DNA of 26,961 nt, taken from the IMG/VR virus record IMGVR_UViG_3300038379_000623, positions 1-26,961 of that record. One strand, 5' to 3'. The position numbers and the translations under genes were made by a program. A model generated the notes under the pieces. That model ran no database searches. It saw nothing but the letters and a program-made list of their open reading frames with translations, and was not told the DNA's origin. Source of the DNA: a virus (lineage: Duplodnaviria; Caudoviricetes). Shown piece after piece: positions 1,620 to 18,381 of the stretch. Every line of letters starts with the position of its first letter. The first letter of the stretch is position 1.

Positions 1620-1815
1620 GCTAGGAGAGATCGAGACATCGAGACCAACGGACCAACGGACATCGACCCTGATCTTTCATCTCCAAATCGTCAGTATGTA
1701 GGGGTATAGTAGTCCGTTAGTATATTATTTTTTTCTAATACACAAATTACGCGCGCGCATAAGCATTTCCGACCCGCCACATCAAGGCCAATCTCCGGTG
1801 GTCCGGTGGTCTAAG
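1620..1815. other. Divergent intergenic region; candidate replication origin/control region
   Basis: AGACCAACGGACCAACGGA (1642-1660) and TCCGGTGGTCCGGTGGTCT (1794-1812) form an inverted pair (17/19), each with internal tandem periodicity. They flank the AT-rich tract TAGTATATTATTTTTTTCTAATACACAAATTA. Confidence 0.45.
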
Positions 1816-1850
1816 TTCTGCTACACTCCAGCACTCCAAGGAGGCATCTT

Positions 1851-2204: not shown

Positions 2205-2211
2205 CCCTTAC

Positions 2212-2237
2212 GGGCTCCCCTCCCGGCAGGGGAGCCC
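2212..2237 (+). terminator. GC-rich hairpin, possible terminator or processing site
   Basis: GGGCTCCCCT-cccggc-AGGGGAGCCC, a perfect 10-bp stem just after the stop at 2204, with only a weak TCTCTC tail. Confidence 0.5.
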
Positions 2238-2254
2238 TCTCTCGTACCTGCAAT

Positions 2255-2400
2255 TCACGCGCCAACACGCGCACACGCAAAATTCGCGCCAAAATCCACC
2301 CGACGAACGGCGCAATCAACCCGCCAAACGGTACTTCCACGCACGCCCGCACGCGCGCAAAATGCCACCCGCACGCAAGAACACGCGCGCACATACGCAC
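2255..2400. repeat. Non-coding tract of degenerate CACGC/ACGCGCGCA repeats
   Basis: Multiple CACGCG/CACGCA/ACGCGCGCA units and CGC(C)AAAAT units lie between genes, followed by TTGACA at 2411. Confidence 0.5.
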
Positions 2401-2434
2401 CCCTAACCACTTGACACGAAAGGAGCCTCCCTCC

Positions 2435-2650
2435 ATGACCAAGAAAGATTACATTCTGATCGCCGCCGCCCTCCACCGCGGCAAACCGGCCACCCAGGAA
2501 GGTGTCCCCTGCAACACCTACACCAGCATCGCATGCAACACCTACACCAACATCGCAACCCACATCGCCACCGCCCTGGCCACCGACAACCCCCGCTTCA
2601 ATCGCTCCCGCTTCCTCGAAGCCTGCGGTCTGCAATCCACCACCCTGTAA
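2435..2650 (+). CDS. Small phage protein (MTxKDY...DNPRFxxxRFLxACG type)
   Basis: RBS AAAGGAG; recognisable N-terminal MTKKDYILIA and C-terminal DNPRFNRSRFLEACG motifs. Confidence 0.8.
   Translation: MTKKDYILIAAALHRGKPATQEGVPCNTYTSIACNTYTNIATHIATALATDNPRFNRSRFLEACGLQSTTL
2510..2557 (+). repeat. 24-bp in-frame tandem duplication
   Basis: TGCAACACCTACACCAGCATCGCA / TGCAACACCTACACCAACATCGCA (23/24), encoding CNTYTSIA / CNTYTNIA. Confidence 0.9.
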
Positions 2651-2693
2651 CCACCGAACAACCAACCCCAACACAGCCCCGAAGGAGGCTCCC

Positions 2694-3455
2694 ATGTCAA
2701 CGACACCCCTCACCCTGTCCGCCGCAGCCCTCACGCAGCCCTACAAGGGCTCCTGCTGGGATTTAGCTCTCGAAGTCTTGCCACACACCCAACGCACCCT
2801 CCTCTACGGCGCCCCCGGCACCGGCAAGACTTACGCCGCCCAACACATCCACCACGACGCCGCCACCCCCATCTACTCCGTCACCCTCGACGAAGACACC
2901 CCGGCCTCCGAACTACGCGGCCACTTCATCCCCGCCAAAGGCGGCTTCAAGTGGCACGACGGCCCCGCCATCCGCGCATGGCGTGAGGGCGCCCGCCTCA
3001 TCCTGAACGAGATCAACCGCGCCTCCGATTCCGTGCGCACCCTCCTTTACGCCATCCTCGACGACACCGAGAGCGCCCAATACACCTTACCTACGGGCGA
3101 GACCCTCCGTCCTGCCCCGGGCTTCGCTGTCGTCGCCACCATGAATGGCACCCCCGACGAACTCCCCAATGGCCTGCTCGACCGCTTCACCTTCTGCCAC
3201 GAAATCACCACAGTCCACCCGGACGCCCTGCTGCGCCTCCCCGTGGAATTCCGCGCCCTCGCGCAGGAAAGCACCTCCCCATCGAAAGGCTCCAAGCGCC
3301 TCAGCATCCGCGCTTGGCTGTACTTCTGCACCCTGTTGGCCTCCGGTCTGACCCCCGACAGCGCAGGCACGGCAGCCTTCGGCTCTAACTGGAAGGAACT
3401 CGCAGCAGCCCTCGCCATACAAATCGCCCCCCAGGTAAGCGAGCCAACAGCCTGA
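2694..3455 (+). CDS. MoxR/CbbQ/CobS-like AAA+ ATPase
   Basis: RBS AAGGAGG and ATG 2694; Walker A GAPGTGKT; WHDGPAIRAW; Walker B variant LILNEINRA; sensor ATMN; Arg finger LLDRF. Confidence 0.9.
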   Translation: MSTTPLTLSAAALTQPYKGSCWDLALEVLPHTQRTLLYGAPGTGKTYAAQHIHHDAATPIYSVTLDEDTPASELRGHFIPAKGGFKWHDGPAIRAWREGARLILNEINRASDSVRTLLYAILDDTESAQYTLPTGETLRPAPGFAVVATMNGTPDELPNGLLDRFTFCHEITTVHPDALLRLPVEFRALAQESTSPSKGSKRLSIRAWLYFCTLLASGLTPDSAGTAAFGSNWKELAAALAIQIAPQVSEPTA

Positions 3456-3490
3456 ATCGCCCAATCGGCCACCCACCAAGGAGCACTCCC

Positions 3491-4138
3491 ATGCCGAAGC
3501 ACTCTCCCATCCTGAAAACCCTGCGTGCCCGCTACAGCCTTCAGCTCGTGCGCTTCCTCTCTGTCGGCCTCCCCATACTCCTCCTTCTCGACTCGCCGAT
3601 GGGCGCCCTCGCCCTCTCCACCACCCTCATCCTTACCACCTACCTCATACCCGATCCCCGGGACTCCCACATCCCTCCCTTCACCACCATCCTCAGGGCC
3701 ATCTACGAGATCGCCTGGAGCTTCCATAACTCCACGTCCGCCTTCCACAAGGCTGCGCAGATCTCCAACGACAGTGAGCGCGCCAACGCCAGCCAAATCG
3801 CCACCTCGGCGTTCTCCGAGAGCACAGGAGCCCTCCTGCTCCTCTACCGCGAATTCGAGCGTACCCATCCCGAAGTCGCGGAAATCTCCCTGAAGCACGC
3901 CTCCGAGCGCGTCTCCAGAGAGAGCGGTACTACCGCCGAAGTCCTGCGACCCGGACTCCTCCTCCTGCAACCCATGCACGCCGCCCTGCGCGATGTACTC
4001 GCAGAAGCCCTCCTGGAGGACTCCTACAGCATCCGCAAGGCCCTGCGCGACAGCGCACTCCCCTCCTACACCTACCAAGGGGTACCGCTCGGGAAACTCC
4101 TGACAGAAACCCTCCCGGATCGCGGCCCCCTTCTATAA
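3491..4138 (+). CDS. Hypothetical protein with N-terminal hydrophobic segments
   Basis: RBS AAGGAG; fills the gap between the ATPase and vWA genes; hydrophobic stretches FLSVGLPILLLL and MGALALSTTLILTTYLI. Confidence 0.7.
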   Translation: MPKHSPILKTLRARYSLQLVRFLSVGLPILLLLDSPMGALALSTTLILTTYLIPDPRDSHIPPFTTILRAIYEIAWSFHNSTSAFHKAAQISNDSERANASQIATSAFSESTGALLLLYREFERTHPEVAEISLKHASERVSRESGTTAEVLRPGLLLLQPMHAALRDVLAEALLEDSYSIRKALRDSALPSYTYQGVPLGKLLTETLPDRGPLL

Positions 4139-4155
4139 GCAACGTGGAGACCCCC

Positions 4156-6021
4156 ATGACCACTATCTATCCAGCATCCGCCGAAACCGTCCGCAGCCAC
4201 CCCAGCAAGCTGCCAAAGAGCACCTCCAGTCGCCGTGCCCGTGCACACCTCCCCAAGCTCTCTCACTGGACGGTCCACCCCACGACTGCCCTGGCCAGCG
4301 CACACGTCGATCTGAATGCCCGCACTATCTACATCCCCATGCGAGGTGGGGCCTGCGCGCGTCACACCGCTTTCCATGAAATCGGCCACATCCTGTACTC
4401 CCCCATGAAACCCTGCCCCGATTTCCACACCCCCACGCAGCTCCGCCTCTACCGCTACATCGAAGACGTGCGCGTCAATACCCTGCTGACCCGCCACATC
4501 CACCTTCCCATCTCAACCTTCGACCCATCCTCCCCGGAAGACGCCCAGGAGCGGCTCCGCCTCAGCGCACGTGCTCCCACCTCCGGCGTCGCGCGCATCC
4601 TCATGGCCCTGCTCACCGTGGACACCCCCTACCACGGCACCGTTTCACTCCCTGCCCATGAGCAACAACTCGTCGACAACACCATCGCATCGCTGTGGCG
4701 CAACGGCCCTCCGTCGCACGCAGACGCCATCCGTGTCACCCACGAACTACTGGCATCTTCCCCCTCATGGCAGCCATCCCCCATTCCCCAGCAACCAGCC
4801 CCATCCGAAGGCCAGGGCCTGCCCATGTTCTCCGACATCGCCACTCCCTCGAAGGCACTGGCAAAGGAAGCGGGGGTACCGGCAATGGGAGAAGCCCCGG
4901 AAGCGTCTGCCACCGGAGGGCAATCCACGCCGCAGGAACTACAACAGCCTACGCCCGGCCCGGAACCCCTGCTGCAAGAAGCCCTCGACCGGGTGCTCGC
5001 CGCTGGAATCTCCACAGGCAGCGAGAACAGCCTTAATCAGTCCTTCTTCGGGAGCAAGGTCCGGTATGACCAGAAAAAAGCCATCTCCGCCGAGGAAGCA
5101 CGCTGGCTCCCCATGAACATCCTCCAGCCACGCCTGAGCCAACCGGCAAGCGGCTCCAGGAGACTACGATCCTCTCCCCGCTGGGTAGGAGGTTATGAAG
5201 AAGGCACCATCCTCCGCAGCCTGCATCGCTACGCCTCCGATGGCGCCATCTTCGCGCGCCGCCGCAAAAGCGCCCCTGCCCTGACCGTACTGGTGGACTG
5301 GAGCGGTTCAATGCACCTATCCCCTGGGAATATGGCCCGCCTCGCAGCCCTGACCAGATTCAGCCGCGTCACCCTCGCCTACTATTCATCAGGCCGCACC
5401 GTATATTCATCAGGCCACACCATATCGTCGGGATCTCAACAAGAGGGTGCCCTCGTCGTCGTCGCCGACCACGGCAGAATGCTCCCCACCGGACAATGGG
5501 CGATCTACAGAGCGGGAGGGAACAACGGCTGCGACGGCCCTGCCCTCCAATGGTTGAATCGGCACACCGGCCTCAAGGTATGGGTCAGCGACGGCGGCAT
5601 CACAGGACGTGCGGGTACCTCCCAGAGAGCTCTCCTGCGCGAGTGCTACAAGCACTGTCAGCAAGGACAGATCGTACAGGTCCCTACAGTAGAGTTACTC
5701 CTGCGCCTGCTGACCTCCGACGACGGTCCCGATCTGGTCGAAGCCCTGCTCACCCACCGCGCTTCCATCGCCGAACTCCACTGGGCAACCCCCGTCTACT
5801 ACAACGGCACCCCGCTCCTGCCACTGACCAGTCCCGCCACATGGCAGCCGGAAAGCAACGAGAGACTCAAGGCAATGCGAGAGGCCCGCATCGACTCCGA
5901 CGGCTGCATCGTGGTCTTCGCCGCAGGCTTCTACACTCTCCTCTCAGGTGCAGCAGCGGGAGTCGTCCTTCCCGCTCCCTGGGAACGGACTTTCCTGAAA
6001 GTCCTGTCGAGATGCTCATGA
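4156..6021 (+). CDS. HExxH metallopeptidase-like + vWA (MIDAS) protein, CobT-like partner of the AAA+ ATPase
   Basis: AFHEIGHILYS...YIEDVRVN; low-complexity P/Q/S linker; VLVDWSGSM (DxSxS); GGNNGCDGPAL; WVSDG. GGAG precedes ATG 4156. Confidence 0.85.
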   Translation: MTTIYPASAETVRSHPSKLPKSTSSRRARAHLPKLSHWTVHPTTALASAHVDLNARTIYIPMRGGACARHTAFHEIGHILYSPMKPCPDFHTPTQLRLYRYIEDVRVNTLLTRHIHLPISTFDPSSPEDAQERLRLSARAPTSGVARILMALLTVDTPYHGTVSLPAHEQQLVDNTIASLWRNGPPSHADAIRVTHELLASSPSWQPSPIPQQPAPSEGQGLPMFSDIATPSKALAKEAGVPAMGEAPEASATGGQSTPQELQQPTPGPEPLLQEALDRVLAAGISTGSENSLNQSFFGSKVRYDQKKAISAEEARWLPMNILQPRLSQPASGSRRLRSSPRWVGGYEEGTILRSLHRYASDGAIFARRRKSAPALTVLVDWSGSMHLSPGNMARLAALTRFSRVTLAYYSSGRTVYSSGHTISSGSQQEGALVVVADHGRMLPTGQWAIYRAGGNNGCDGPALQWLNRHTGLKVWVSDGGITGRAGTSQRALLRECYKHCQQGQIVQVPTVELLLRLLTSDDGPDLVEALLTHRASIAELHWATPVYYNGTPLLPLTSPATWQPESNERLKAMREARIDSDGCIVVFAAGFYTLLSGAAAGVVLPAPWERTFLKVLSRCS

Positions 6022-6323
6022 AGCCATTGCCCTTCAACCTGCACGGCCTCTTGGTCCTGCAAGCCGTCTCTCCGGAGTCGATCTTCTACAAGGATCGCCG
6101 TCTCCTGGAGTCGGAACTGTGCCGGATCGTCAGTCGGCGCTGCCTTGCCTGCCGGGGCGGTTATGCCGCCTCGCTTCAGATGCTCACCGGCCCATACGCA
6201 GGCAAGGTCCTCCACATGATCGGTGTCTCCCTCGCCGACTACGACCCTTCGACTCCGGCGCCACGGAAACCCCCAAACGCCGGCAAACCCGAAGCGCAAG
6301 GCACCGCGCAAACCAACCTGTAA
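6018..6323 (+). CDS. Hypothetical protein
   Basis: ATGA overlap with the vWA stop; MKPLPFNLHGLLVLQ... is the 3' part of track ORF 5496..6323. Confidence 0.6.
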   Translation: MKPLPFNLHGLLVLQAVSPESIFYKDRRLLESELCRIVSRRCLACRGGYAASLQMLTGPYAGKVLHMIGVSLADYDPSTPAPRKPPNAGKPEAQGTAQTNL

Positions 6324-6335
6324 AGGAGAAAAGCC

Positions 6336-6674
6336 ATGAACGACAGCACACAGCAATTGATCCGCGAACTGGCCGAAAAGCTCGGCACTACAGCAGAGCA
6401 CTTATGGGGCGTCCTGGTCAGGCAAGCACCGATAAGCGGAACCCTCGGACTGCTCGGTATCGCGGCACTCCTGGGGTTCGTATACATTGCCTGGAAACGA
6501 CTGACGAAAATCGACTTTACCAAATGGGACCACGATCTTGCCAAGGGTACAATGTATGGCGGGTTGTTAATCGCAACAGTAATTGCCCTTCTCAGTCTTC
6601 TTTTGTTAGCTCCCTTATACGTCGCCGGGATACTCAACCCGGAATACTGGGCACTCAGGCAAATCCTGAAATGA
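6336..6674 (+). CDS. Phage membrane protein (two TM segments)
   Basis: RBS AAAGGAG; LAEKLGTTAEHLWGVLVRQA, two hydrophobic helices, C-terminal LNPEYWAL. Confidence 0.8.
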   Translation: MNDSTQQLIRELAEKLGTTAEHLWGVLVRQAPISGTLGLLGIAALLGFVYIAWKRLTKIDFTKWDHDLAKGTMYGGLLIATVIALLSLLLLAPLYVAGILNPEYWALRQILK

Positions 6675-6682
6675 GGCGTGTT

Positions 6683-6705
6683 ACCGAACGAACGCCGTGT
6701 TATAC
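6683..6705 (-). repeat. Truncated attC-like site 1
   Basis: ACCGAAC-GAACGCCGT-GTTATAC. GTTATACGGCAC (6699-6710) is complementary to GTGACGTATAAC (6900-6911), 11/12. Confidence 0.55.
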
Positions 6706-6720
6706 GGCACTGGAGGCAAA

Positions 6721-6903
6721 ATGGTCATGAAGAAGATGTTTGTTGCAGCACCGAACTACCTAATTGCTTTTGCAATGTGCATGGCGCTGACGGTGATGGC
6801 GGCGCTGACCAAAAACCCGGAATGGTACTGGCTGTTGGTGAGCGACATGAACGTGGCGATATGGCTGTTGGTTGCATACTGGCTCGACCCGCTCAGGAAG
6901 TGA
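6721..6903 (+). CDS. Cassette ORF: small membrane protein
   Basis: RBS GGAGG; two hydrophobic segments; bounded by sites 1 and 2. Confidence 0.7.
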   Translation: MVMKKMFVAAPNYLIAFAMCMALTVMAALTKNPEWYWLLVSDMNVAIWLLVAYWLDPLRK

Positions 6904-6904
6904 C

Positions 6905-6951
6905 GTATAACGCTGCGGCGTAGCCGGTCGGCCTCGAACTGCTTGCTATGG
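6905..6951 (-). repeat. attC-like site 2 (internally deleted relative of site 9)
   Basis: GTATAAC GCTGCGGCGTAGCCGGTCGGCCTCGAACTGCTT GCTATGG; matches site 9 minus 12 nt. Confidence 0.75.
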
Positions 6952-6965
6952 CACAGGAGGAAAGA

Positions 6966-7199
6966 ATGAAGATTTTTCGGGTAGTGACAGAACGGGATGG
7001 AGCAACCACCAAAGTGCCGGGAGAGCATACGACTGAGATTGTGCGTGAAGAACTGCGCTATGCAGCCGATACCATGCAAGAAGTCTGGGACGAGATCGCA
7101 TGGATACGCAACGACCCGGAAAAGACTTTGCTGGCTGTGCATGAGGAGGCGCCGGCAGTTACGGTTCTGGGGCATAGCGCAAAGTCGGGCCAAGCATAA
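6966..7199 (+). CDS. Cassette ORF: hypothetical protein
   Basis: RBS AGGAGG; MKIFRVVTERDG...; the TAA stop lies in the GCATAAC core of site 3. Confidence 0.75.
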   Translation: MKIFRVVTERDGATTKVPGEHTTEIVREELRYAADTMQEVWDEIAWIRNDPEKTLLAVHEEAPAVTVLGHSAKSGQA

Positions 7200-7255
7200 C
7201 GCCGTGTCGAGCGGCGCGCCGAATAGGCGCATCCGGGTTGAAGCGGTTGTTAGAT
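7194..7255 (-). repeat. attC-like site 3 (62 bp)
   Basis: GCATAAC...GTTAGAT imperfect hairpin. GTTAGATTGC is complementary to GCAATCCAAC (7640-7649), 9/10. Confidence 0.8.
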
Positions 7256-7271
7256 TGCAATTGGAGGGACG

Positions 7272-7751
7272 ATGGTAAAGAGAACCGAAAGAGGGTGGCC
7301 CGGGCATTTTACTTGCGCCGACTGGTGCTTGTTCAGAAGGAACACGCTCCTGGACTTTGGCAGGAGGAAAATAATCGTGAGCACGGTTGGGAGGATGCGC
7401 GATGCCAGGAACGGAGGCGCTTACGCCCCCGTTTGCGCAAGCGGAAGGTACTACGAAACGATGGCATTTTATGCCAAGAGAAACGGACCGTATTGGGATG
7501 CCGATGTTACCAGGCAGATCGGCTTTGAAAGCGAATGGGAAATTTGCGCAGATTCGGTAAAAAAATTACCGAAGGATGCCGACAACAAAGCGAACGATAT
7601 GCACGAGGCGGTTGTGGCAGAGCTTATTGAACGATTCGGGCAATCCAACGCCGTGTTGAGCGGCGCGCCTGACGACAACAACGAGGTGCCGGGAAGCGGC
7701 ACACCGCCTCACCGCGTCCGGCCGAAAACAAAACAGAGGTACACGACATGA
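7272..7751 (+). CDS. Cassette ORF: phage hypothetical protein (RGWPGHF...CLFRRNTLL), C-terminus read through site 4
   Basis: RBS GGAGG; the tail SNAVLSGAP... is encoded by the attC-like sequence. Confidence 0.8.
   Translation: MVKRTERGWPGHFTCADWCLFRRNTLLDFGRRKIIVSTVGRMRDARNGGAYAPVCASGRYYETMAFYAKRNGPYWDADVTRQIGFESEWEICADSVKKLPKDADNKANDMHEAVVAELIERFGQSNAVLSGAPDDNNEVPGSGTPPHRVRPKTKQRYTT
7643..7744 (-). repeat. attC-like site 4 (long, degenerate)
   Basis: ATCCAAC GCCGTGTTGAGCGGCGCGCC is nearly identical to the left arm of site 3; the right end is CGCGTCCGGCCGAAAAC...GGTACAC. Confidence 0.65.
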
Positions 7752-7793
7752 CCCTGACATTCTATTCCGTGAGTCTCAGGGCATGGAGGAAAC

Positions 7794-7997
7794 ATGGCTC
7801 AATGTAAAACATGCAGATTTTTCGAATTTATCGATTCCAATCCGGAGTCGTACGGAATATGTAGATGGTTCGATCATCACACACTTCCAGGGCCAATATG
7901 GTTTCATCGGGAACTGCGGGATACGGTATCCATTGGCAGCGGTGCTCTACACCCGGAACAGGAGTTATGCCTCGCGCACCGGGACAAAGCCGTATAA
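7794..7997 (+). CDS. Cassette ORF: small Cys-containing protein (CxxC...C...C)
   Basis: RBS GGAGG; MAQCKTCRFF...GICRW...LC; the stop falls in the core-like GCCGTATAAT. Confidence 0.7.
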   Translation: MAQCKTCRFFEFIDSNPESYGICRWFDHHTLPGPIWFHRELRDTVSIGSGALHPEQELCLAHRDKAV

Positions 7998-8019
7998 TGC
8001 AAAGTCGGTAAGGTGGAAT

Positions 8020-8265
8020 ATGGAAAAAATACTGGCAAACATCGAAATGGCTGTCTCTAACGGCGTCAAACGGGCAAATAGGCGCGAGTTTGAGATTGGC
8101 GACCTTGTGGAACGAAGCGGACAACCTGATTGTATTTTTGAAGTAGTTGGGTGCATTCACGATACAGAAAGACTATTTGTTATCGACCGTACTGGACGAT
8201 TCGCCAAGGGGAAGGAATTTGAAATGTGTTTTGCCGAAGTATCCAGGCAATTTCGTGCCGTATAA
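8020..8265 (+). CDS. Cassette ORF: hypothetical protein (FEIGDLV, possibly SH3/KOW-like)
   Basis: AAGGTGG before ATG 8020; 3' half of track ORF 7783..8265; the stop is in the GTATAAC core of site 5. Confidence 0.65.
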   Translation: MEKILANIEMAVSNGVKRANRREFEIGDLVERSGQPDCIFEVVGCIHDTERLFVIDRTGRFAKGKEFEMCFAEVSRQFRAV

Positions 8266-8338
8266 CGAAACGATGGAGGTAACGCGCGCCATGACCAAGC
8301 ATGCAAACGATGCAACGCCATTAAGCGATTTGTCAGAT
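8260..8338 (-). repeat. attC-like site 5 (degenerate; contains RBS and start of the next ORF)
   Basis: GTATAAC...GGAGGT...ATG(8291)...GTCAGAT. GTCAGATTG (8332-8340) is exactly complementary to CAATCTGAC (8471-8479). Confidence 0.6.
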
Positions 8339-8503
8339 TGTCCTGTGTGCGATGGATACGGCGGCATTCGGTTTCAGCGGTGTTGCGGTCGTGATCGCAA
8401 CGGCGAATGCTGCGGAGACCCGAAAATCGATGTCGAACAATGCCACGCTTGCGGCGGCAGCGGACAAGTGCAATCTGACGATGGAGCTAAGCAGCATGAG
8501 TGA
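8291..8503 (+). CDS. Cassette ORF: DnaJ-type zinc-finger mini-protein
   Basis: CPVCDGYG and CHACGGSG (CxxCxGxG twice) plus two CCG; RBS GGAGGT. Confidence 0.8.
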   Translation: MTKHANDATPLSDLSDCPVCDGYGGIRFQRCCGRDRNGECCGDPKIDVEQCHACGGSGQVQSDDGAKQHE

Positions 8504-8544
8504 AGCGCAGCGTAACGAATGTCCTCTTGAGCGGGTTGTTAGCC
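8473..8544 (-). repeat. attC-like site 6 (contains start of the MTase-like ORF)
   Basis: ATCTGAC...GCTAAG...CTTGAGC...GTTAGCC. GTTAGCCCCGTTT is complementary to AAATGGGGCTAAC (9096-9108), 12/13. Confidence 0.75.
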
Positions 8545-9107
8545 CCGTTTTGGTGGGCTGCGAGGAAAGCCAGGTTGTTTGCAAGGCGTTTCGGGATGCC
8601 GGACATGAAGCCTACTCTTGCGACTTGCAGCCGACACGCGGAAATCCCGATTGGCACTTTCAGCAGGACATTATGGAAGTGATACCGATCCGGCGATGGG
8701 GGCTGATAATTCTGCACCCGGATTGCACGGCGCTGGCAGTAAGCGGGAATCGCTGGTATGGACGCGGGATGCCGAGACACAGCGAGAGAGAGAGAGCAAT
8801 CAAGTGGACTCTGGATTTGTGGGAGCTGGCAAAAATGCACAGTGACAGGGTGGCACTGGAAAACCCGGTGAGTGTGATATTTACGCACTTACCGAATGTG
8901 TTTTACACACAGCCGTATGACCACGGGCACGGAGAAACGAAAAAGACCGGCTTTGCACTGCATAATCTGGAGCCGCTGGAACCGACGAACAAGGTTGAAG
9001 GCCGGGAACAGCGGATATGGAAAATGCCACCTTCGGCCACGCGGAAACGCGACAGGAGCGAGACGTTTCCCGGGATTGCTGCCGCGATGGTGAGGAAATG
9101 GGGCTAA
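8496..9107 (+). CDS. Cassette ORF: short phage C5-cytosine DNA methyltransferase-like protein
   Basis: VLVGCEESQVV...AYSCDL (SAM-binding region), HPDCT (motif IV-like), LENP (motif VI), RSETFPGIAAAMV.KWG; GGAG before ATG 8496. Confidence 0.75.
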   Translation: MSEAQRNECPLERVVSPVLVGCEESQVVCKAFRDAGHEAYSCDLQPTRGNPDWHFQQDIMEVIPIRRWGLIILHPDCTALAVSGNRWYGRGMPRHSERERAIKWTLDLWELAKMHSDRVALENPVSVIFTHLPNVFYTQPYDHGHGETKKTGFALHNLEPLEPTNKVEGREQRIWKMPPSATRKRDRSETFPGIAAAMVRKWG

Positions 9108-9182
9108 CGCTCCGCATGAGCGGCAGACGAAGGAGGAATGAAATGACGACTGAGACTGTCCGACTTGATGCGCTTGTTATGC
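9102..9182 (-). repeat. attC-like site 7 (RBS and ATG in its loop)
   Basis: GGCTAAC GCTCCGCATGAGCGGCAG-[ACGAAGGAGGAATGAAATGACGACTGAGA]-CTGTCCGACTTGATGCGCTT GTTATGC. Unit ends GTTATGCGCC / GACGCATAAC pair 9/10. Confidence 0.85.
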
Positions 9183-9460
9183 GCCTTCGTGCGGCTGCGG
9201 CTAACAAGGCGCTGGATATTGGCACGGCGTGGAAGTTATTGGATGAATCAGCCGATGTAATTGAAAAGATTTTTAACGGCCTAGATTGCGAAACTGAGTG
9301 CCCTTGCTGCCAAGAAAACACAGAGTGCCTCGAAGGCTGTACGTTCTCAACTGATTCATACGATGGGTATGGGCGGATGCAATTCTTTCGCGAACTGCTG
9401 ACGCATAACGGCGTTTTCAGTGGCACGCCGTCAGGCGGGTCCGCCGGAAAACAGGGTTAG
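9143..9460 (+). CDS. Cassette ORF: Cys-rich hypothetical protein
   Basis: RBS AGGAGG; CETECPCC...CLEGC; starts in site 7 and stops at the TAG within GTTAG of site 8. Confidence 0.75.
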   Translation: MTTETVRLDALVMRLRAAAANKALDIGTAWKLLDESADVIEKIFNGLDCETECPCCQENTECLEGCTFSTDSYDGYGRMQFFRELLTHNGVFSGTPSGGSAGKQG

Positions 9461-9462
9461 GT
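9403..9462 (-). repeat. attC-like site 8 (60 bp)
   Basis: GCATAAC GGC GTTTTCAGTGG...CCGCCGGAAAAC AGG GTTAGGT. Unit ends GTTAGGTTGC / GCAACCTAAC pair 10/10. Confidence 0.85.
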
Positions 9463-9478
9463 TGCGATTGGAGGGCAC

Positions 9479-9709
9479 ATGAATTTTGTACAGGTAACAG
9501 ACCGGCTACCACAAGCCAAGGAAACTGTATTGGTTCGCGGATGGGGCGAAGGCAAGAAACACTACATTTATGGATTCGCCTGCATTGAACCATTGCGTAG
9601 CGGTGGCTGGCGTTGGTGGTCGCATGACCATGGTGAGGAGCTGTGGTTCGAGCCGATTGCATGGACTGAGCTTGAGCAACCTAACGCTGCGGTTGAGCCG
9701 CCGGCGTAG
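9479..9709 (+). CDS. Cassette ORF: DUF551-like protein
   Basis: FVQVTDRLP...VLV...W...PIAWTEL pattern; RBS GGAGG. Confidence 0.7.
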   Translation: MNFVQVTDRLPQAKETVLVRGWGEGKKHYIYGFACIEPLRSGGWRWWSHDHGEELWFEPIAWTELEQPNAAVEPPA

Positions 9710-9737
9710 CCGGTCCGCCTCGAACCGCTTGTTATGC
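9679..9737 (-). repeat. attC-like site 9 (59 bp, best conserved)
   Basis: Minus strand: GCATAAC AAGCG GTTCGAGG CGGACCGGCTACGCCGGCGG CTCAACC GCAGC GTTAGGT, i.e. R''-spacer-L''(extra C)...L'-spacer-R'. Unit ends GTTATGCCTCAA / TTGAGGCATAAC pair 12/12. Confidence 0.9.
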
Positions 9738-9756
9738 CTCAATGTTGGAGGACAAA

Positions 9757-10029
9757 ATGAAAGCAACAGAATACTGCGATGTATTGAACCTGGAAATGCG
9801 GTTGACGTACTACCCAAACCAGGGTGGCCGGTGGACCGCATTTTTTGAAAATTGCGAACTGAAGGAAACACCGGATTCCGGTGTTCTTTGCGGTGCGTAT
9901 GGAAATGGGGCCTCTCCGGCATTGGCGATTGCCGATTACGTGAACAGGATTCGCGGCAAGACGTTGGTTGTCGATGCGATGAGCCCACAGCGCCGTGTTT
10001 ACATGGTGCCTGAATCGCTTGAGGCATAA
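9757..10029 (+). CDS. Cassette ORF: hypothetical protein (YGNGASPALAIADY)
   Basis: RBS GGAGG; the TAA stop lies in the GCATAAC core of site 10. Confidence 0.8.
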   Translation: MKATEYCDVLNLEMRLTYYPNQGGRWTAFFENCELKETPDSGVLCGAYGNGASPALAIADYVNRIRGKTLVVDAMSPQRRVYMVPESLEA

Positions 10030-10076
10030 CGTTGGAGTTAACGCGACCTTCGGTCGCGTTCGACGACGAGTTGGAT
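10024..10076 (-). repeat. attC-like site 10 (53 bp)
   Basis: GCATAAC...AACGCGAC-CTTCG-GTCGCGTT...GTTGGAT. Unit ends GTTGGATTT / AAATCTAAC pair 8/9. Confidence 0.8.
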
Positions 10077-10091
10077 TTGGAGAATTGCGAT

Positions 10092-10325
10092 ATGCACAAA
10101 ACAGATAGTCACACCCCCGATGGCAAGCGCGGCGAGGTATTCGCTGCTTCCATGCTACGCGACATTCTTCTCGCTGGCGATAATTTGCGCGGATATGGGC
10201 AAGAGGCACCTTGGGAAACGGTTGCGCATTACGTCATAAACCTTGAGCGACGAGTGTGCGAATTGGAAGATATGCTGAAATCTAACGGCCCGCTAACCGG
10301 CGAGCCGGAAGGCGAGTCCGGTTGA
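10092..10325 (+). CDS. Cassette ORF: hypothetical protein
   Basis: GGAG before ATG 10092; the tail SNGPLTGEPEGESG is encoded by site 11. Confidence 0.7.
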   Translation: MHKTDSHTPDGKRGEVFAASMLRDILLAGDNLRGYGQEAPWETVAHYVINLERRVCELEDMLKSNGPLTGEPEGESG

Positions 10326-10339
10326 GCGGAGAGTTATAC
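10280..10339 (-). repeat. attC-like site 11 (60 bp)
   Basis: ATCTAAC GGC CCGCTAACCGG...CCGGTTGAGCGG AGA GTTATAC; the stem has a single extrahelical G in the right arm on +. Confidence 0.9.
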
Positions 10340-10349
10340 GGAGGTATGT

Positions 10350-10613
10350 ATGGCAAGCAGCTTTGCTCCTTGGTGGAAAAGGCTTTTGTTTAAGACGCCA
10401 CTCTACAAGCGCGGACCATGCCAAAACTACCATTTGAGAACCGACAAGTTTTGTTTCTGCCGTGTTAACGAGCACTGCGGAGATTGGAATGGCGGTATCT
10501 ACAGTTTCGAGACAGGGCAAGAATTGTTCCTCGATACTTCACGACCGCGGGCCACGAAAGACCGGAAGTGCGCCGACCTGTCCCGGTCGGCTCGATTAAA
10601 TTGTGGGGCGTAA
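10350..10613 (+). CDS. Cassette ORF: hypothetical protein
   Basis: RBS GGAGGT directly after site 11. Confidence 0.65.
   Translation: MASSFAPWWKRLLFKTPLYKRGPCQNYHLRTDKFCFCRVNEHCGDWNGGIYSFETGQELFLDTSRPRATKDRKCADLSRSARLNCGA
10583..10609 (-). repeat. Degenerate right half of attC-like site 12
   Basis: CCGGTCGGCTCGATTAAATT GTGGGGC resembles CCGGTCGGCCTCGAACTGCTT GCTATGG of site 2. Confidence 0.4.
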
Positions 10614-10624
10614 ACGGAGGCACT

Positions 10625-10762
10625 ATGACTGAAGGCGATATTTTCCAGATTCTTTGGCTTTTGGGTGGACTTGCACTTCCGTTCTTCCCGATTGCCGCAC
10701 TGGTTTATTTATTACTGCTTGTTGCGGCATTGTTTGTACCAGCGTCATGGTTTGGTTTATGA
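10625..10762 (+). CDS. Small membrane protein (45 aa)
   Basis: RBS GGAGG; MTEGDIFQILWLLGGLALPFFPIAALVYLLLLVAALF..., almost entirely hydrophobic. Confidence 0.7.
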   Translation: MTEGDIFQILWLLGGLALPFFPIAALVYLLLLVAALFVPASWFGL

Positions 10763-10835
10763 CGCCTGACAAGGAATAGACCGCCCAACTGCGGTAATAC
10801 AACGCCGCAATCGCCCACAATACAGGAGAACCGGA

Positions 10836-10994
10836 ATGAAACATCCCGTCTCGCTGTTCCGATCCGCACTGGTGCTGGCGCTGCTCGCTGTACTGCTCGA
10901 CGGCGCCGGCTGCCGCGCTCACGTACAGCCGCGCAGTGCTGGCGTAGTCTACGCCACGGGCGGCGTCTGCGATCCGTGCGGTGCCGTGCAATGA
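10836..10994 (+). CDS. Small secreted/membrane peptide (52 aa)
   Basis: Below the track cutoff. RBS AGGAG; MKHPVSLFRSALVLALLAVLLDGAGC...; ATGA overlap with the next gene. Confidence 0.55.
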   Translation: MKHPVSLFRSALVLALLAVLLDGAGCRAHVQPRSAGVVYATGGVCDPCGAVQ

Positions 10995-11221
10995 AAGCGC
11001 ATCATGCGTTGGGCATCGGCCTTATTTGCATCGGCATCGTGGTCGCGGTCGGTGTGTATACCCTGCCGCCGTATCTCAGGGCGCATGCAGACGCCGAGGC
11101 ACGATTCGCGCTGCTACGGGAGCAGGATGCCGTAATGCAGGCGATGGCCGAAACCATCGCCGAGTGCAATGCCGCGCTCAGGAAGGCCGGCGTAACCTTC
11201 AACCACCGACAGGAGGACTGA
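10991..11221 (+). CDS. Hypothetical protein with N-terminal TM and helical tail
   Basis: MKAHHALGIGLICIGIVVAVGVY...; coupled start. Confidence 0.7.
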   Translation: MKAHHALGIGLICIGIVVAVGVYTLPPYLRAHADAEARFALLREQDAVMQAMAETIAECNAALRKAGVTFNHRQED

Positions 11222-11223
11222 CC

Positions 11224-11460
11224 ATGTATGACAGTAGAGAGAAAGAGCAGAGCAGTGAGACGATGCGAATCCCTGCGGACGAACTTGCCAAGGTACGGGG
11301 GGAGGCGATCAACGAGTTTCTGCTTCTTCTGAGCCTTGGCTATCGCCCGATAGCAGCGTTCGAGCGCGTCACGGGGAGGCCGGGCACGGAAGCGATGCGC
11401 GCCCTCGAGCACGTGGCCATTGGCAAGTCGTTGAATTGCGAGGACAGTTTCAAATCTTGA
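11224..11460 (+). CDS. Hypothetical protein
   Basis: RBS AGGAGG; MYDSREKEQ... Confidence 0.7.
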   Translation: MYDSREKEQSSETMRIPADELAKVRGEAINEFLLLLSLGYRPIAAFERVTGRPGTEAMRALEHVAIGKSLNCEDSFKS

Positions 11461-11485
11461 CACACGCGCGAATAGCTGAGAACAT
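11457..11485 (+). promoter_or_regulatory. Possible sigma70-type promoter for the recombination/replication operon
   Basis: TTGACA, a 17-nt spacer containing CACGCGCG, then a weak -10 GAACAT, at an intergenic gap. Confidence 0.35.
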
Positions 11486-11548
11486 TGCATGCGCAGCGGC
11501 ACTCGCCTCCTGCGCGATTTGAATTCAACCCGGAAAGGAGATCGATCC

Positions 11549-11815
11549 ATGGCAAAGAGAAACGGCACCCGCACTACCGTCGGCCCTGTGCAGTCGGGCA
11601 TTCCACTACCGTCGAGAATGGCAGGAGTGCGTGGCACTTCCAAGTACCCCCTGCGCATGCTGCGCGTCGGGCAATCCTTTGAGGTGTCCGGAAAGACTGC
11701 ACCCGCCAGACTTCGGGGGACGATCTCGAATCTCTTGCAGGTGCACCCGGAGTTCAAGGGCCGGTTTGCCACCCGCAAGACCGAACAGGGCGTGCGGGTA
11801 TGGCGCGTCAAGTGA
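11549..11815 (+). CDS. Small basic putative DNA-binding phage protein (GIPLP...KYP...VGxSF...GVRVWR type)
   Basis: RBS AAAGGAG; characteristic motif series. Confidence 0.8.
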   Translation: MAKRNGTRTTVGPVQSGIPLPSRMAGVRGTSKYPLRMLRVGQSFEVSGKTAPARLRGTISNLLQVHPEFKGRFATRKTEQGVRVWRVK

Positions 11816-11823
11816 GCCCTGCC

Positions 11824-12009
11824 ATGAGTGAAGACACATTGATGCAGGCTGTCCTGAACCTGAACGATCTGCGGCGCTCCGTGCTGGAGGGGAAGGAAGT
11901 TTCAGCTACAGAGTACGCCCGTCTGATAGAGGAGCTGCGCGCCGCCCGGGAGGCAGCCCCGAAAAGAAAACGTCCCGGCAAGGCAAAGAACGATGCCGAC
12001 CCCGCGTAA
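11824..12009 (+). CDS. Hypothetical protein
   Basis: Fills the operon gap; helical with a basic tail. Confidence 0.65.
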   Translation: MSEDTLMQAVLNLNDLRRSVLEGKEVSATEYARLIEELRAAREAAPKRKRPGKAKNDADPA

Positions 12010-12295
12010 CCTGAATCAGTACCCGATCAGCTACCTGACTGCGCTATTGAGAGCTGCGGTGAAACCCGTGACCTTCGCGTGTGACAGCCCGGGCAGTGCA
12101 AAGACGCTGCGGGGGGAACTCTACCTGATGCGTGCCAAGCTGGTACGTGAAGCGGGGAAGCGCAAGCGCGGGCGCCTCGTAACGACAGCAGGCACGATCC
12201 GGCGCGTAAGGATGCGCGTTGTCAACAGCTCCCTCATTCTGGAGCCGCGCCTCACCAAGGGCGAACTCGTCACACGGGCGATGGAGGAGCGATGA
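11993..12295 (+). CDS. Hypothetical basic protein
   Basis: Overlaps both neighbours in operon fashion; MPTPRNLNQYP... Confidence 0.7.
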   Translation: MPTPRNLNQYPISYLTALLRAAVKPVTFACDSPGSAKTLRGELYLMRAKLVREAGKRKRGRLVTTAGTIRRVRMRVVNSSLILEPRLTKGELVTRAMEER

Positions 12296-12516
12296 CATAT
12301 CCACTGGAGGCATTCAGGTTTGCCCTGCTGCACGCCCGCACCGTGGCAGACGTGCTGCGGGCATACAAGGAGTTCGCGTCATTCTACGGCGTTCATGCGG
12401 AACTGCCGGAGGAGCAGTGGGCGCGCATATCCGCCGCGCTCGCCTTGGGCGATTCCATTCAACTTCCCTTGAAGGAGGGTATCCATGACAGCAATTCCAT
12501 TCCCGCAGGGGATTGA
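12292..12516 (+). CDS. Hypothetical protein
   Basis: RBS GGAGGAG; ATGA overlap. Confidence 0.7.
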   Translation: MTYPLEAFRFALLHARTVADVLRAYKEFASFYGVHAELPEEQWARISAALALGDSIQLPLKEGIHDSNSIPAGD

Positions 12517-14969: not shown

Positions 14970-15392
14970 ATGCCCCGGATCGAAAAAACCCGATTTCGCA
15001 CTGCGCCTCCCCTTGAGTTCTCTGTGGCTCCTCTCCCGGTGCGCGTGCGCATCTGGCGGCGCCTGCGCAGCCTGAATCTGGATGTGATGTTGTACTACGG
15101 GCTTGCCTGTGTCGTCCTGCTTTTGGGGATATTGCTGCTGGCGGGCTGTGCCAGCACACCCTTTGCGGAAATCGGAATTGGAGGAGTCCGACAACCGCTG
15201 ACGCACGCGACGGCTTCTCCGGTGGTGATGCAGGTTGAGCTGGGAACGCAATGGCGCTCGGGATTCGGCTTCAAGTACAACCATACCAGTTCCGTCGATG
15301 GGCCTCCCGTGAACAGTCGCAGGGACGACCGCTGGACCGAGTACGGCGGGATGTACTGGCGCATGTCATTCGACAAGGCTCATCCCAAATGA
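14970..15392 (+). CDS. Putative lipoprotein / outer-membrane beta protein
   Basis: RBS AAGGAG; hydrophobic segment ending in lipobox LAGC; alternating beta-strand-like segments, YNHTSS and terminal YWRMSF. An alternative start is at 15087. Confidence 0.65.
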   Translation: MPRIEKTRFRTAPPLEFSVAPLPVRVRIWRRLRSLNLDVMLYYGLACVVLLLGILLLAGCASTPFAEIGIGGVRQPLTHATASPVVMQVELGTQWRSGFGFKYNHTSSVDGPPVNSRRDDRWTEYGGMYWRMSFDKAHPK

Positions 15393-15441
15393 TACGCCTT
15401 ATCGCGGACCGAGTACGGCGGGATGTACTGGCGCATGTCAT
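15334..15441 (+). repeat. Exact 36-bp direct repeat separated by 36 bp
   Basis: GGACCGAGTACGGCGGGATGTACTGGCGCATGTCAT at 15334-15369 and 15406-15441. Confidence 0.95.
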
Positions 15442-15787: not shown

Positions 15788-16027
15788 ATGGCAGACGTGA
15801 TCGATCTGAAGGTTGTCTCTGAAGATAACCATCACTGGGGAATAGAGGAAATGTTGCAGGATGCCCTGCGGGACTTCTCCGGCATAAGGCAGGGCCGGGC
15901 GCTCCTGATCGTTGAGGGTCCGGAGAAACACCATTATCAGGTGAAGCGGGTGCGCCTGGATTTGGCGCAGACACTCCTGTTGCTGCGCGTTGTCGAGCGT
16001 GGATTTCTCCGGGAGAGTGGACTGTGA
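15788..16027 (+). CDS. Hypothetical protein
   Basis: GGAG before ATG 15788; MADVIDLKVV...; GTGA overlap with the polymerase. Confidence 0.75.
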   Translation: MADVIDLKVVSEDNHHWGIEEMLQDALRDFSGIRQGRALLIVEGPEKHHYQVKRVRLDLAQTLLLLRVVERGFLRESGL

Positions 16028-18381
16028 CGGGGAGAAAAGTCCGCTCCAGCGGGCCGGTGGACGCCGACACCATGATCGTGGGGGAGGCTCCCGGCGCGGA
16101 GGAGGAACGCCGGGGTGAGCCCTTTGTCGGACTCTCGGGGCAGGAGTTGTCCCGGATGCTCCAGGAGGCAGGGATTCATCGGGCCTTCTGCCGCATCGTG
16201 AATGTCTGCCCGTATCGCCCGCCGGGAAATGACATTGACGGGTTCTTTCTGAACAAGACGGCGGCGCGGAAAGCCGGCGTCCCTTGCGTACAGGGACGAT
16301 ATCCTGCGGCACCTGTTGTGGAAGGCTTGCAGGAATTGCGGCGTGAGATTCTGACGACGCGCCCAAAGCGGATTCTCCTGTTGGGAGGGACTGCCCTGTG
16401 GGCTGTCCTGGGGTTGGAAGGTATTGCGCATTGGCGTGGCTCCGAGCTGACGGGGACGCTGGATGGCGTCTCCTTCCGGGTCGTTCCTACGTGGCACCCG
16501 GCGGCGGTGCTGCGCTCGTGGGAGTTGCGCTACATTGCCGTGCGGGATATGCGCCGCCTTGTCTCCCCGGGGACGCCCCCGGTAGACGACTTCCGGATAG
16601 CGCCTGCGAAACAGGAAGTGCTCGATACGCTCAGTCGCTTGCAGGGATATGCAGGGGACATCGCAGTTGATCTGGAGACGCACCCCGCAAGCAAGCACAT
16701 CACCTGCTGTGGGCTGGCATGGGAGGAGAGTGGTGAAACCCGTGCGTTGTGCATCCCGTTCACGACAGGAGCAACGATGCAGCCGTACTGGAGGAGTGCG
16801 GCGGAGGAAGCCGGGATTCTTTTGGCGCTCCGGCGCTGCCTGCAATCGGAGGTGCCGCGCTTTGCAGGGCATAATTACCTGTTCGATATGCAGATGATGG
16901 CGCGCTGGTGGGGATTCCTTCCCCGTCTGCACATGGACACAATGCTCACGCATCATGTCGTGCTGCCTGGATTGCTGAAATCGCTGGACTTCTGCGCTTC
17001 CTTGTATCTGCCCTACTACCGGCAATGGTCGCTGACTGAAGCGGACTGGAAGCTCGGTGTCCCGGACGAGACGTTGTGGACATACAACTGCCGTGACGTG
17101 CAGGTGACGCTGGCTCTGGTGGCGAAGCTGCGCGAAGCCGTGCACAAGGAGAAACTGGAGGAGCAGGTCAGGCAGCAACATGCTCTCCTTCCGATGGTGC
17201 TGGAAATGTCGCTGCGAGGCATGCGACTGGACGTGCAACGCCTTCCCGAGGTACGGCAGCAACTCCAGGAGGCGATGAGGAAAACGCAGGAGTTTCTGGA
17301 TACCAGCGTGGGGCATCCACTCAATCCACGATCTGCGGTGCAACTGAAGCGGCTGTTCTACGCAGACTTGCAGGTGAAGCCCCGGCTCAAACGGGGAAGC
17401 TCCTCTGTGACATGCGACAAGACTGCGCTGCGGGAGATCGGACAAAGCCATCCCCTGCTGCGACCTTTGACGAATGCCATCCTGGATTACCGTTCCCTCG
17501 GCGTTCTGAAATCCACGTTCGTGGATGCCCAATACGACCCGGACGGTCGGGCACGGACGTCATTCAATATGGCGCGTGTGCACACCTTTCGCCTGTCGTC
17601 GAGCGAGAGCATCTTCGGGACCGGGATCAACATGCAGAACGTCCCCAAGCCGGACAAGGGCAAGGCTGTTGGAGTGAATCTCAGGGAGTTGTTCCTGTTC
17701 GACGGCATCGGGCTGGAGTGCGATCTGGATCGGGCCGACTTGCAGGTGGTGGTTTGGGAAGCCGACGATGCGGAGCTGAAGCACCTGCTGCGCAGTGGCG
17801 CCGATCTGCACATGGAGAATGCCAGGACTATTTTCGGGGCGGCAGCGACGGCGCGGCACCGGGAGCTGGCAAAAGCCGGCGTGCACCTGACGAACTACGG
17901 GGGGCGGCCTCCGGTGCTGGCCGCGACCCTGGGAATCACACGGGCGGAAGCGGAGAAATTCCAGGCGCGCTGGTTCGCGGCACACCCCGGAATAAAGCGC
18001 TGGCATCGCCGGGTGGAGATGGAGTTGGCGACGACGCGAGCGACACGGAACGCCTTTGGATATCGCCGTCACTGGTTCGACCGGCTCGACGCCATTCTGC
18101 CGGAGGCGCTGGCGTGGGGTCCCCAAAGCACTGTCGCTCTCGTCATCAATCAGGGTATCTTGCAGTTAAAGACCGCGCTGCCCCAGGTCCAGTTGTTGAT
18201 GCAGATACATGACAGTGTGGTGTTTCAGCTCCCCCCGGACACCGATCTGCCCGGCACGCTGCCTGCGGTGAAGGCGGCCTTGCGTGTCCCTGTCCCCTAT
18301 CCCGATCCCTTGATTATCCCGGCGTCGGCCAGGATATCGACAACGACATGGGCGGCCTGTACGCCCGTTCCCAACTGGTGA
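16024..18381 (+). CDS. polA: Family A DNA polymerase with N-terminal uracil-DNA glycosylase (family 4-like) domain and 3'-5' exonuclease
   Basis: UDG motifs IVGEAPG.EE...G.PFVG.SG, RPPGN and PTWHPAAVLR; Exo I DLET, Exo II HNYLFD, Exo III YNCRD; TFRLSSS, NMQN; motif A DLDRADLQVV, motif B RELAKAGVHLTNYG, motif C QIHDS. Confidence 0.95.
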   Translation: MTGRKVRSSGPVDADTMIVGEAPGAEEERRGEPFVGLSGQELSRMLQEAGIHRAFCRIVNVCPYRPPGNDIDGFFLNKTAARKAGVPCVQGRYPAAPVVEGLQELRREILTTRPKRILLLGGTALWAVLGLEGIAHWRGSELTGTLDGVSFRVVPTWHPAAVLRSWELRYIAVRDMRRLVSPGTPPVDDFRIAPAKQEVLDTLSRLQGYAGDIAVDLETHPASKHITCCGLAWEESGETRALCIPFTTGATMQPYWRSAAEEAGILLALRRCLQSEVPRFAGHNYLFDMQMMARWWGFLPRLHMDTMLTHHVVLPGLLKSLDFCASLYLPYYRQWSLTEADWKLGVPDETLWTYNCRDVQVTLALVAKLREAVHKEKLEEQVRQQHALLPMVLEMSLRGMRLDVQRLPEVRQQLQEAMRKTQEFLDTSVGHPLNPRSAVQLKRLFYADLQVKPRLKRGSSSVTCDKTALREIGQSHPLLRPLTNAILDYRSLGVLKSTFVDAQYDPDGRARTSFNMARVHTFRLSSSESIFGTGINMQNVPKPDKGKAVGVNLRELFLFDGIGLECDLDRADLQVVVWEADDAELKHLLRSGADLHMENARTIFGAAATARHRELAKAGVHLTNYGGRPPVLAATLGITRAEAEKFQARWFAAHPGIKRWHRRVEMELATTRATRNAFGYRRHWFDRLDAILPEALAWGPQSTVALVINQGILQLKTALPQVQLLMQIHDSVVFQLPPDTDLPGTLPAVKAALRVPVPYPDPLIIPASARISTTTWAACTPVPNW

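Follow-up and report, generated by a model that had tools for sequence, protein, structure and literature searches.

The viral record IMGVR_UViG_3300038379_000623, a whole linear virus record of 26,961 nt and 60% completeness (referred to here as the window), is that of a tailed phage and carries an array of small genes joined by hairpins of the attC type, the recombination site of integron gene cassettes. The array extends from about 6683 to 10615 and holds 12 small plus-strand genes and 13 junctions. Seven of the sites are complete (S3 and S6-S11), and S2, S4, S5b and J0 are degenerate. The AAC and GTT triplets of attC anatomy are both present in S3 and S7-S11, and the left triplet of S6 is GAC. 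An overlapping record of the same phage (G001, 54% complete) adds 7.5 kb on the left, giving 34.4 kb combined, and the array is identical in the two records. An initial annotation of the window had placed sites S6-S11 at positions that were confirmed in the sequence, but it had not covered the array's left half (6683-8338) or its final cassette (up to 10615). The features are as follows, with a vertical bar marking the crossover position in a box.

6336..6674, plus strand: left flank gene, a membrane protein (PHROG 1486, E 6e-16), not a cassette; no GTT box upstream
6683..6705, no strand assigned: J0, leftmost junction and distal array end, a 23-nt site remnant with AA|C at 6689 and G|TT at 6699
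6721..6903, plus strand: gene A, 60 amino acids, hydrophobic
6905..6951, minus strand: S2, internally deleted attC, a relative of S9; 14.1 bits; GCT replaces GTT
6966..7199, plus strand: gene B, 77 amino acids; its stop is the TAA of the next left box
7194..7255, minus strand (top strand): S3, attC; AA|C at 7200; 26.4 bits
7272..7751, plus strand: gene C, reading through S4 with AAC in frame
7643..7744, minus strand: S4, degenerate attC without an attC fold; AA|C at 7649
7794..7997, plus strand: gene D, 67 amino acids, ending at a decayed junction (TAA|T at 7998)
8020..8265, plus strand: gene E, 81 amino acids
8260..8338, minus strand: S5b, degenerate attC holding the Shine-Dalgarno (SD) sequence and ATG of gene F; right box GTCAGAT
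8291..8503, plus strand: gene F, Cys-rich, 70 amino acids, reading into S6
8473..8544, minus strand: S6, attC; left box GA|C at 8479; 35.0 bits; holds the SD and ATG of gene G
8496..9107, plus strand: gene G, DNA methyltransferase-like, 203 amino acids (PHROG 757 'DNA methyltransferase', E 3e-49), codons 1-14 within S6
9102..9182, minus strand: S7, attC; AA|C at 9108; 49.7 bits; its loop contains the SD and ATG of gene H
9143..9460, plus strand: gene H, 105 amino acids, starting in S7 and ending in S8
9403..9462, minus strand: S8, attC; AA|C at 9409; 13.2 bits; bulged G on plus
9479..9709, plus strand: gene I, 76 amino acids, reading into S9
9679..9737, minus strand: S9, attC; AA|C at 9685; 55.9 bits
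9757..10029, plus strand: gene K, 90 amino acids
10024..10076, minus strand: S10, short attC; AA|C at 10030; missed by the covariance model
10092..10325, plus strand: gene L, 77 amino acids, reading into S11
10280..10339, minus strand: S11, attC; AA|C at 10286; 21.3 bits; bulged G on plus
10350..10613, plus strand: gene M, last of the array, 87 amino acids
10609..10615, no strand assigned: J12, probable right end, AAA|C; the weakest junction, at the expected position of attI

For the orientation of the sites, it was initially proposed that their canonical top strand is the minus strand while every gene lies on plus. As a reference, bacterial sites were gathered with a generic pattern derived from the sites of the window, giving a set dominated by Rhodanobacteraceae. 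The longer adjoining open reading frame (ORF) was co-oriented with the pattern at 139 of the 149 bacterial sites with full flanks (8 opposite, 2 undecided), and the pattern strand was therefore taken as the canonical top strand. A covariance model (R1) made from 40 bacterial attC top strands, picked for diversity, returned ten matches in the window with filters off and E<=10. The best seven (S9, S7, S6, S3, S11, S2 and S8, in descending order of the scores listed above) were all on the minus strand, and the other three are noise (7.9-8.9 bits, E 5-8.5); S10 and the degenerate sites other than S2 were not matched. Better matches on plus, which the initial annotation had named as the outcome that would count against the proposed polarity, were thus not obtained. 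As a control for R1, the experimentally tested sites of phage TJE1 fall on the coding strand, which is canonical and agrees with the strands tested in PMC9892861 (this and the other articles named below are cited for particular passages).

The genes of the window face the other way. An SD sequence and start codon reading away from the site were found on the plus strand at 7/7 complete sites and on the minus strand at 0/7, so the starts lie on the bottom strand, compared with 139/149 co-oriented ORFs in bacteria. The canonical cassette arrangement, in which the ORF is co-oriented with an attC at its 3' side and expressed from the integron promoter Pc, is therefore not what lies here. The search for starts was preferred because the longest-ORF test gave erratic calls at viral loci (3 top, 3 bottom, 1 undecided), and a 156-codon antisense frame led it to miscall S9 as canonical. 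The SD-plus-start test detects few starts in bacteria: among 150 bacterial sites it called 24 top, 3 bottom and 124 neither, with one site counted on both. At 74 viral sites, made up of 21 of the 27 model hits in the integrase loci described below and the non-duplicate hits of a second list (one was dropped for a short flank), the start was on the bottom strand at 54 and on the top at 3. An entire array of this polarity, which had been called unusual, is indeed so for bacteria but is common in phage records.

In folds of the plus-strand DNA, a single bulged G was found in the right arm of S6 (with the box pairs forced), S8, S9 and S11, as had been described from the letters. The same had been claimed for S7, which proved ambiguous: in its minimum-energy fold the G lies within a small internal loop, and a clean bulge is obtained only if a G-T pair is accepted. 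S3 and S10 gave no clear call. The model R1 aligns the GAC motif on the minus strand. Folding of both strands, which had been suggested as a check, showed the plus strand to be more stable than the minus in 6/7 complete sites, the exception being S9. Considered by themselves the hairpins are modest, with a fold z of about -2.4 to -3 for S8-S11.

The boxes also relate neighbouring sites to each other. With the fixed triplets excluded, the right box of a site matches the left box of the next at 46/63 positions, compared with 20/63 for its own left box, and 37 of 200,000 permutations reached 46. Degenerate junctions take part as well: 6/7 positions match between the right box of J0 and the left box that follows it, and likewise between the left box of S4 and the right box of S3, and the right box of S5b, a site without an attC fold that the covariance model missed, matches the left box of S6 at 9/10. 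The boxes of S10 are complementary at 7/7 positions with S9 and at 5/7 with S11. At the right end, J12 and the S11 box agree at 0/7 positions ungapped and match if one base is skipped. Box complementarity between neighbouring sites is also seen in G004, a 13-site array in which 7/12 adjacent pairs match at 7/7. Complementary boxes flanking each gene mark former circular cassettes; their orientation is not given by complementarity alone. The right box of J0 (6699-6710) is also a 12/12 complement of the end of gene E (8255-8266), four cassettes away, and an 11/12 complement of the end of gene A, which reflects either a box sequence that is common or the remains of a reordering.

Which site travels with a gene was read from homologues. 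For gene G, whose cassette spans 8479-9107, these were taken from viral and metagenome contigs; 86 loci were examined and 29 with an upstream site were picked by eye. Among pairs at 85-95% gene identity, the upstream site was common to 58/187, the downstream site to 0/150 and the left neighbour to 0/186. At >=95% identity (n=7) the corresponding counts were 7/7, 4/5 and 2/7. Nine different left neighbours precede one hairpin family and seven precede another, with conservation starting at (T)AA|C, and on the right side the gene is constant up to AA|C and variable beyond. Gene H agrees: its homologues P0002 and P0004 keep the S7-encoded N-terminus and, at the protein level, diverge after the Asn of AAC. 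The initial annotation had proposed attC plus the downstream gene as the mobile unit, with crossover at the plus-strand AA|C, and would have given this up if genes travelled with the other site; the genes follow their upstream and not their downstream site, and the breakpoints of relatives lie at the plus-strand AA|C. Natural mobility with this crossover is seen from homologues of two of the 12 cassettes.

Not all copies of gene G are cassettes. Many homologues have no site at all, so that it is a plain gene in some loci and is joined to at least 8 different hairpins in others, nearly all of which give an in-frame start in or at the site. The upstream hairpin bodies (e.g. 55, 64, 67, 85 and 98 nt) give way to the gene at the right-hand G|TT or a little ahead of it. 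Of 29 bodies, 28 provide an in-frame ATG or GTG upstream of G|TT, and in the four shortest-body loci there is also an ATG in the box. By eye, the body in L323 resembles S6, and its gene is distant on the tree. In L312 and L313 the downstream sites resemble their own upstream ones.

The window has seven same-strand model hits, with both flanks sequenced and no intI, the gene of the integron integrase IntI, nearby. It therefore falls among the attC site clusters that have no integron integrase (CALINs), defined by two or more same-strand attC within 4 kb and no intI nearby. Complete integrons, with intI and attI adjoining the array, were found in two relatives, G003 and L025, where attI is a candidate by position. 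G003 carries a homologue of the gene G cassette (81% identical) and an IntI scoring 412.8 bits with TIGR02249 (cut-off 265). Its order is co-directional (L262:1-2953), running from inverted cassettes through a hairpin-less AA|C junction to intI and a terminase-like gene, and the part of the array with gene G lies at the other contig end, joined via a repeat. In L025 the gene G homologue is the cassette adjoining intI. G003 looks temperate and has a separate Xer-type integrase (L090).

A search with the G003 IntI gave 26 viral IntI-related loci, 11 of which contain 27 model hits. All but one of these hits are opposite to intI (26/27), all but one are upstream of intI, and among the matches listed the genes run with intI. 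This intI-attC geometry is the bacterial one, as in L135, L146, L173 and L176. A motif is conserved after the last AA|C in several loci (L264, L266, L267, L269-L274 and L287), in which the upstream genes differ, and it may represent a family of phage attI sites. A tree of IntI (21 viral and 6 bacterial rows) has several supported viral clades and no single viral clade, and is too thin to speak to origin. Among individual loci, L266 has two intI copies, L283 and L285 have an intI with an internal deletion, and a lone attC-like hit at L286:9882-9942 stands directly upstream of intI in the opposite orientation to the others there. In the viral record L095 the attC polarity is apparently canonical, and this is probably a captured bacterial array.

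The hairpins of the window are also coding sequence. The start codons of genes G and H lie within the hairpin, 42 and 33 nt ahead of the right box and in the reading frame of GTT, and gene F starts within the degenerate S5b. At the other end, the left box that follows provides its TAA as the stop codon of genes B, D, E, G and K, genes C, H, I and L read the AAC of the next site as Asn, and gene F has the GAC of S6 in frame. The ends of C, F, H, I and L lie in the next site or beyond it, which makes their tails dependent on the neighbour. The plus strand of 1400-12500 gave no sigma-70-like promoter, and the promoter and terminator scan was at chance level. Expression by phage read-through is plausible, and a Pc at attI would fire antisense in the geometry of the array.

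Site polarity, gene polarity, the joint travel of gene and upstream site in relatives, AA|C breakpoints and complementary boxes were all observed. From these we consider it probable that this is an integrase-less integron-type array, in which the genes lie on the strand of the attC bottom-strand hairpin and the mobile unit is attC plus the next gene, cut at the plus-strand AA|C, most likely by IntI in trans. The enzyme would be an ordinary IntI doing bottom-strand recombination, supplied by the host or by a co-infecting phage with its own intI. It could fold and cut the coding strand at AA|C, excise the site with its gene and insert them at another AA|C. In intI-bearing phages, normal intI/attI/attC geometry with flipped genes would make the array and intI one co-directional run. 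The genes could be expressed from the early or replication transcript of the phage, so that Pc would be dispensable, and the downstream end would be the entry point of new cassettes. The hairpin doubles as coding sequence, supplying the SD, start and first residues of some genes and the last residues of others. The left half of the array is decaying, and the GAC of S6 may lock cassettes F and G together. If the genes run with the replication fork, the recombining strand would be the lagging-strand template, favouring excision (PMC5371416); the GC skew, which is positive across the array and may be codon-driven, would fit. The two plain array ends suggest seeding at one candidate secondary site, with 6689 joined to 10615.

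Several observations weigh against this interpretation. No tyrosine recombinase (PF00589) was found in the window or in G001, both of which are incomplete records, and after J12 there is neither an attI-like sequence nor intI. The folds of S3, S6 and S7 are no better than those of shuffled sequences, and S6 carries GAC in place of the expected AAC. The pairs counted for gene G are not independent, and although the gene travels with its upstream site, it does not do so permanently: at 85-95% identity the upstream hairpin bodies differ in 129/187 pairs, and on the gene G tree the hairpin families interleave. Because different bodies sit on close gene pairs in this interleaved way, a second, slower exchange route must exist. 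It could be top-strand recombination, annealing of similar arms or repeated cassette creation. No variants of the phage with a cassette gained or lost were found, and the mobility of the exact copies in the window is therefore inferred from the homologues of two cassettes. Searches with the exonuclease and with gene K gave no close relatives of the phage backbone, and no empty site was seen. Among sequencing runs, one DNA run was found to contain the sequence and is possibly its source, and no RNA run was listed. In contigs of the DNA run, a joint between 8101 and 10054 (a 21-nt side, with 42 other letters between) was set aside as weak and not at cassette ends.

The presence of Sak4-like and exonuclease genes 2-3 kb downstream of the array, which is a further point of this kind, could mean that attC-derived cassettes are now swapped by the phage's own homologous recombination through hairpin-arm homologies, and not by IntI. 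The lack of an integrase in 34.4 kb, hybrid-looking sites (the left arm that S3 and S4 have in common; L312 and L313) and the exchange of bodies among 90%-identical genes can be read in the same way. However, left arms are constant from the first base after AA across nine and seven neighbours, where annealing would scatter the breakpoints, the boxes obey the cassette-circle rule in the window and in G004, and related phages keep IntI beside such arrays, which makes this an improbable account. Somewhat less probable again is that IntI assembled the array long ago and that it is now fixed, its hairpins being retained chiefly for a role in the mRNA, as elements of translation start, coupling or RNA processing. 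The truncated or degenerate state of J0, S2, S4, the junction at 7998 and S5b, the starts of the next gene carried by two intact sites, S6 and S7, the four genes ending within the next site and the identity of both phage records over the array would agree with this. In S7-S11, however, both bulged positions are preserved and the box matches are near-perfect, features that would be worn away if recombination had not been recent, and as RNA only S11, out of five sites tested, folds clearly better than shuffled sequences. For the left half, a fixed array is compatible with the interpretation that we favour.

The units could instead be canonical, each a gene with its downstream site, and be recombined at the plus-strand G|TT, the integrase having its strand preference inverted. 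Box complementarity is blind to orientation, different bodies meet the same gene at or just before G|TT, and IntI1 can recombine two-bulge sites through the top strand at a low rate (PMC5027507). The 0/150 pairs with a downstream site in common, the gene H homologues that differ in the downstream-encoded tail while keeping the upstream-encoded N-terminus, and intI standing opposite to the top strand as in bacteria largely refute this as the main route and leave it very improbable; it may survive as a rare route of body swapping. That chance palindromes or terminators were mistaken for attC, or that the true genes lie on the minus strand, could be argued from the energetic weakness of some hairpins and from the canonical call of S9 in the crude ORF test. 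This is refuted, with a negligible probability, by model scores of up to 55.9 bits that are confined to the array, by the homologues and SD sequences of the plus-strand genes, and by the similarity to bacterial attC of S7 (75% identical over 81 nt to a site in L110) and S9 (86% identical to one in L228).

Short intergenic elements that permit modular shuffling of small phage genes are familiar from the PeSL regulatory cassettes of T4 and the boundary sequences of lambdoid phages. Those are promoter or homology elements, whereas the elements in the window are attC hairpins with a site-specific crossover point. Phage CALINs have been published for TJE1 and PH101, with sites that were recombined with IntI1 through the bottom strand (PMC9892861). 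They are, like the array of the window, integrase-less attC arrays in tailed phages with methyltransferase cargo; the present array is longer, with 12 genes, and its genes start and end within sites. When these phages were rescored, TJE1 was canonical (3/3 hits), and PH101 (4/4; L379:25919-27987) and MW202573 (3/3; L377:2069-2703) were inverted relative to the annotated genes. PH101 has a duplicated site with flanking DNA (26529, 27931). For the two PH101 sites recombined by IntI1 (PMC9892861), the annotated genes on either side have the bottom strand as their coding strand, and this comes nearest to an experimental demonstration in support of the mechanism; by analogy, the sites of the window may be recombined by IntI as well. 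Phage CALINs are therefore already known, and inverted arrays were present in that dataset, apparently unremarked: in the passages of PMC9892861 that concern them, the TJE1 and PH101 arrays are called typical and genes antisense to attC are not mentioned.

Bacterial cassette arrays and CALINs (PMC4889954, PMC5027507) have the R and L boxes, bottom-strand bulged G and T and AA|C crossover of the window, and bacterial integrons and the phage relatives share the same intI-versus-attC geometry. The window differs in having its genes on the bottom strand, the site before the gene and a polarity in which Pc is unable to drive the genes. The inversion described by Nivina et al. (PMC5027507) is a rare top-strand event that flips a whole cassette, whereas in the window it is the gene alone that is turned against its own site, and uniformly so. 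In the reverse integrons of Treponema (PMC7691350, PMC4889954), intI is flipped, with the cassettes located downstream of it and the stop codon at its usual place in R''. The phage relatives have the genes flipped instead, and these lie upstream of intI; the window, without intI, is not of the Treponema type. Insertion of cassettes outside integrons, at attG (Loot et al., bioRxiv 10.1101/2022.09.11.507474), could seed an integrase-less array at a secondary site, although that work concerns canonical cassettes and bacterial chromosomes. No description of ORF-inverted cassette arrays was found in the literature searched, most subscription papers lying outside it.

The bottom-strand selectivity of integrons is held to serve the alignment of promoterless genes with Pc. 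In many phage records this chemistry appears to work for genes of the opposite orientation, to which Pc is of no use. This implies a largely separate viral cassette pool, because a cassette of one pool sits antisense in an array of the other. It also offers an explanation, in terms of site-specific exchange, of the odd, variable N- and C-terminal tails of small phage proteins and of part of phage mosaicism. More speculatively, phages could run an integron economy of their own, with a phage IntI and attI, separate cassettes built backwards and a hairpin that is both recombination site and portable translation start, in which the second box would, by rare exchange, give the 5' end of a gene a new hairpin with an in-frame start of its own. 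We regard this as possible but rather doubtful. If true, second-box grafting would be cassette creation caught in the act, a long-open integron question, and gene G, plain and on at least 8 hairpins, makes cassette genesis directly testable.

For the individual cassettes, gene A had no match in PHROG and Pfam searches, gene G had none in a search of solved structures, and other viral homologues of gene K were searched for and none was found. Gene C has six homologues (47-50%), and a homologue of gene B in L370 (59% identity) has, by eye, flanks without an attC-like site. A stretch of 40 nt in S2 is 88% identical to 9702-9741. The Rfam search gave no match, and the array has no DNA match among GenBank phages. 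A sequence pattern specific to S9 retrieved only the second record of the phage from viral contigs and nothing from genomes. A rule-based hairpin scan of the window was dropped as too permissive.

The array is a stretch of lower GC content (50-56%, against about 61-65% elsewhere), lying between the gene at 6336-6674 and a gene at 10625. By PHROG and Pfam profile searches, the window encodes a family A DNA polymerase fused to a uracil-DNA glycosylase, a primase, the Sak4-like annealing protein, the exonuclease, an AAA ATPase and ejection-type proteins. The left extension of G001 has genes that were read by eye as those of terminase, portal and capsid, with a simple repeat of alternating purine and pyrimidine (L259:5240-5320) between the terminase-like and the portal-like gene. 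The region 2694-6021, with the AAA ATPase (AAA_5) and a 625-amino-acid protein that we presume, from its resemblance, to be a VWA-type partner of the ATPase, has a strongly C-rich plus strand (GC skew to -0.49). A 34-nt inverted repeat (1491-1524 and 2300-2333, 88% complementary, 775 nt apart) flanks the divergence of two gene blocks and is a candidate origin or control region. A perfect direct repeat of 36 nt (15334-15369 and 15406-15441, 72 nt apart) is found at the end of a 140-amino-acid ORF, and the DNA polymerase gene at 16024-18381 has its uracil-DNA glycosylase domain at the N-terminus.

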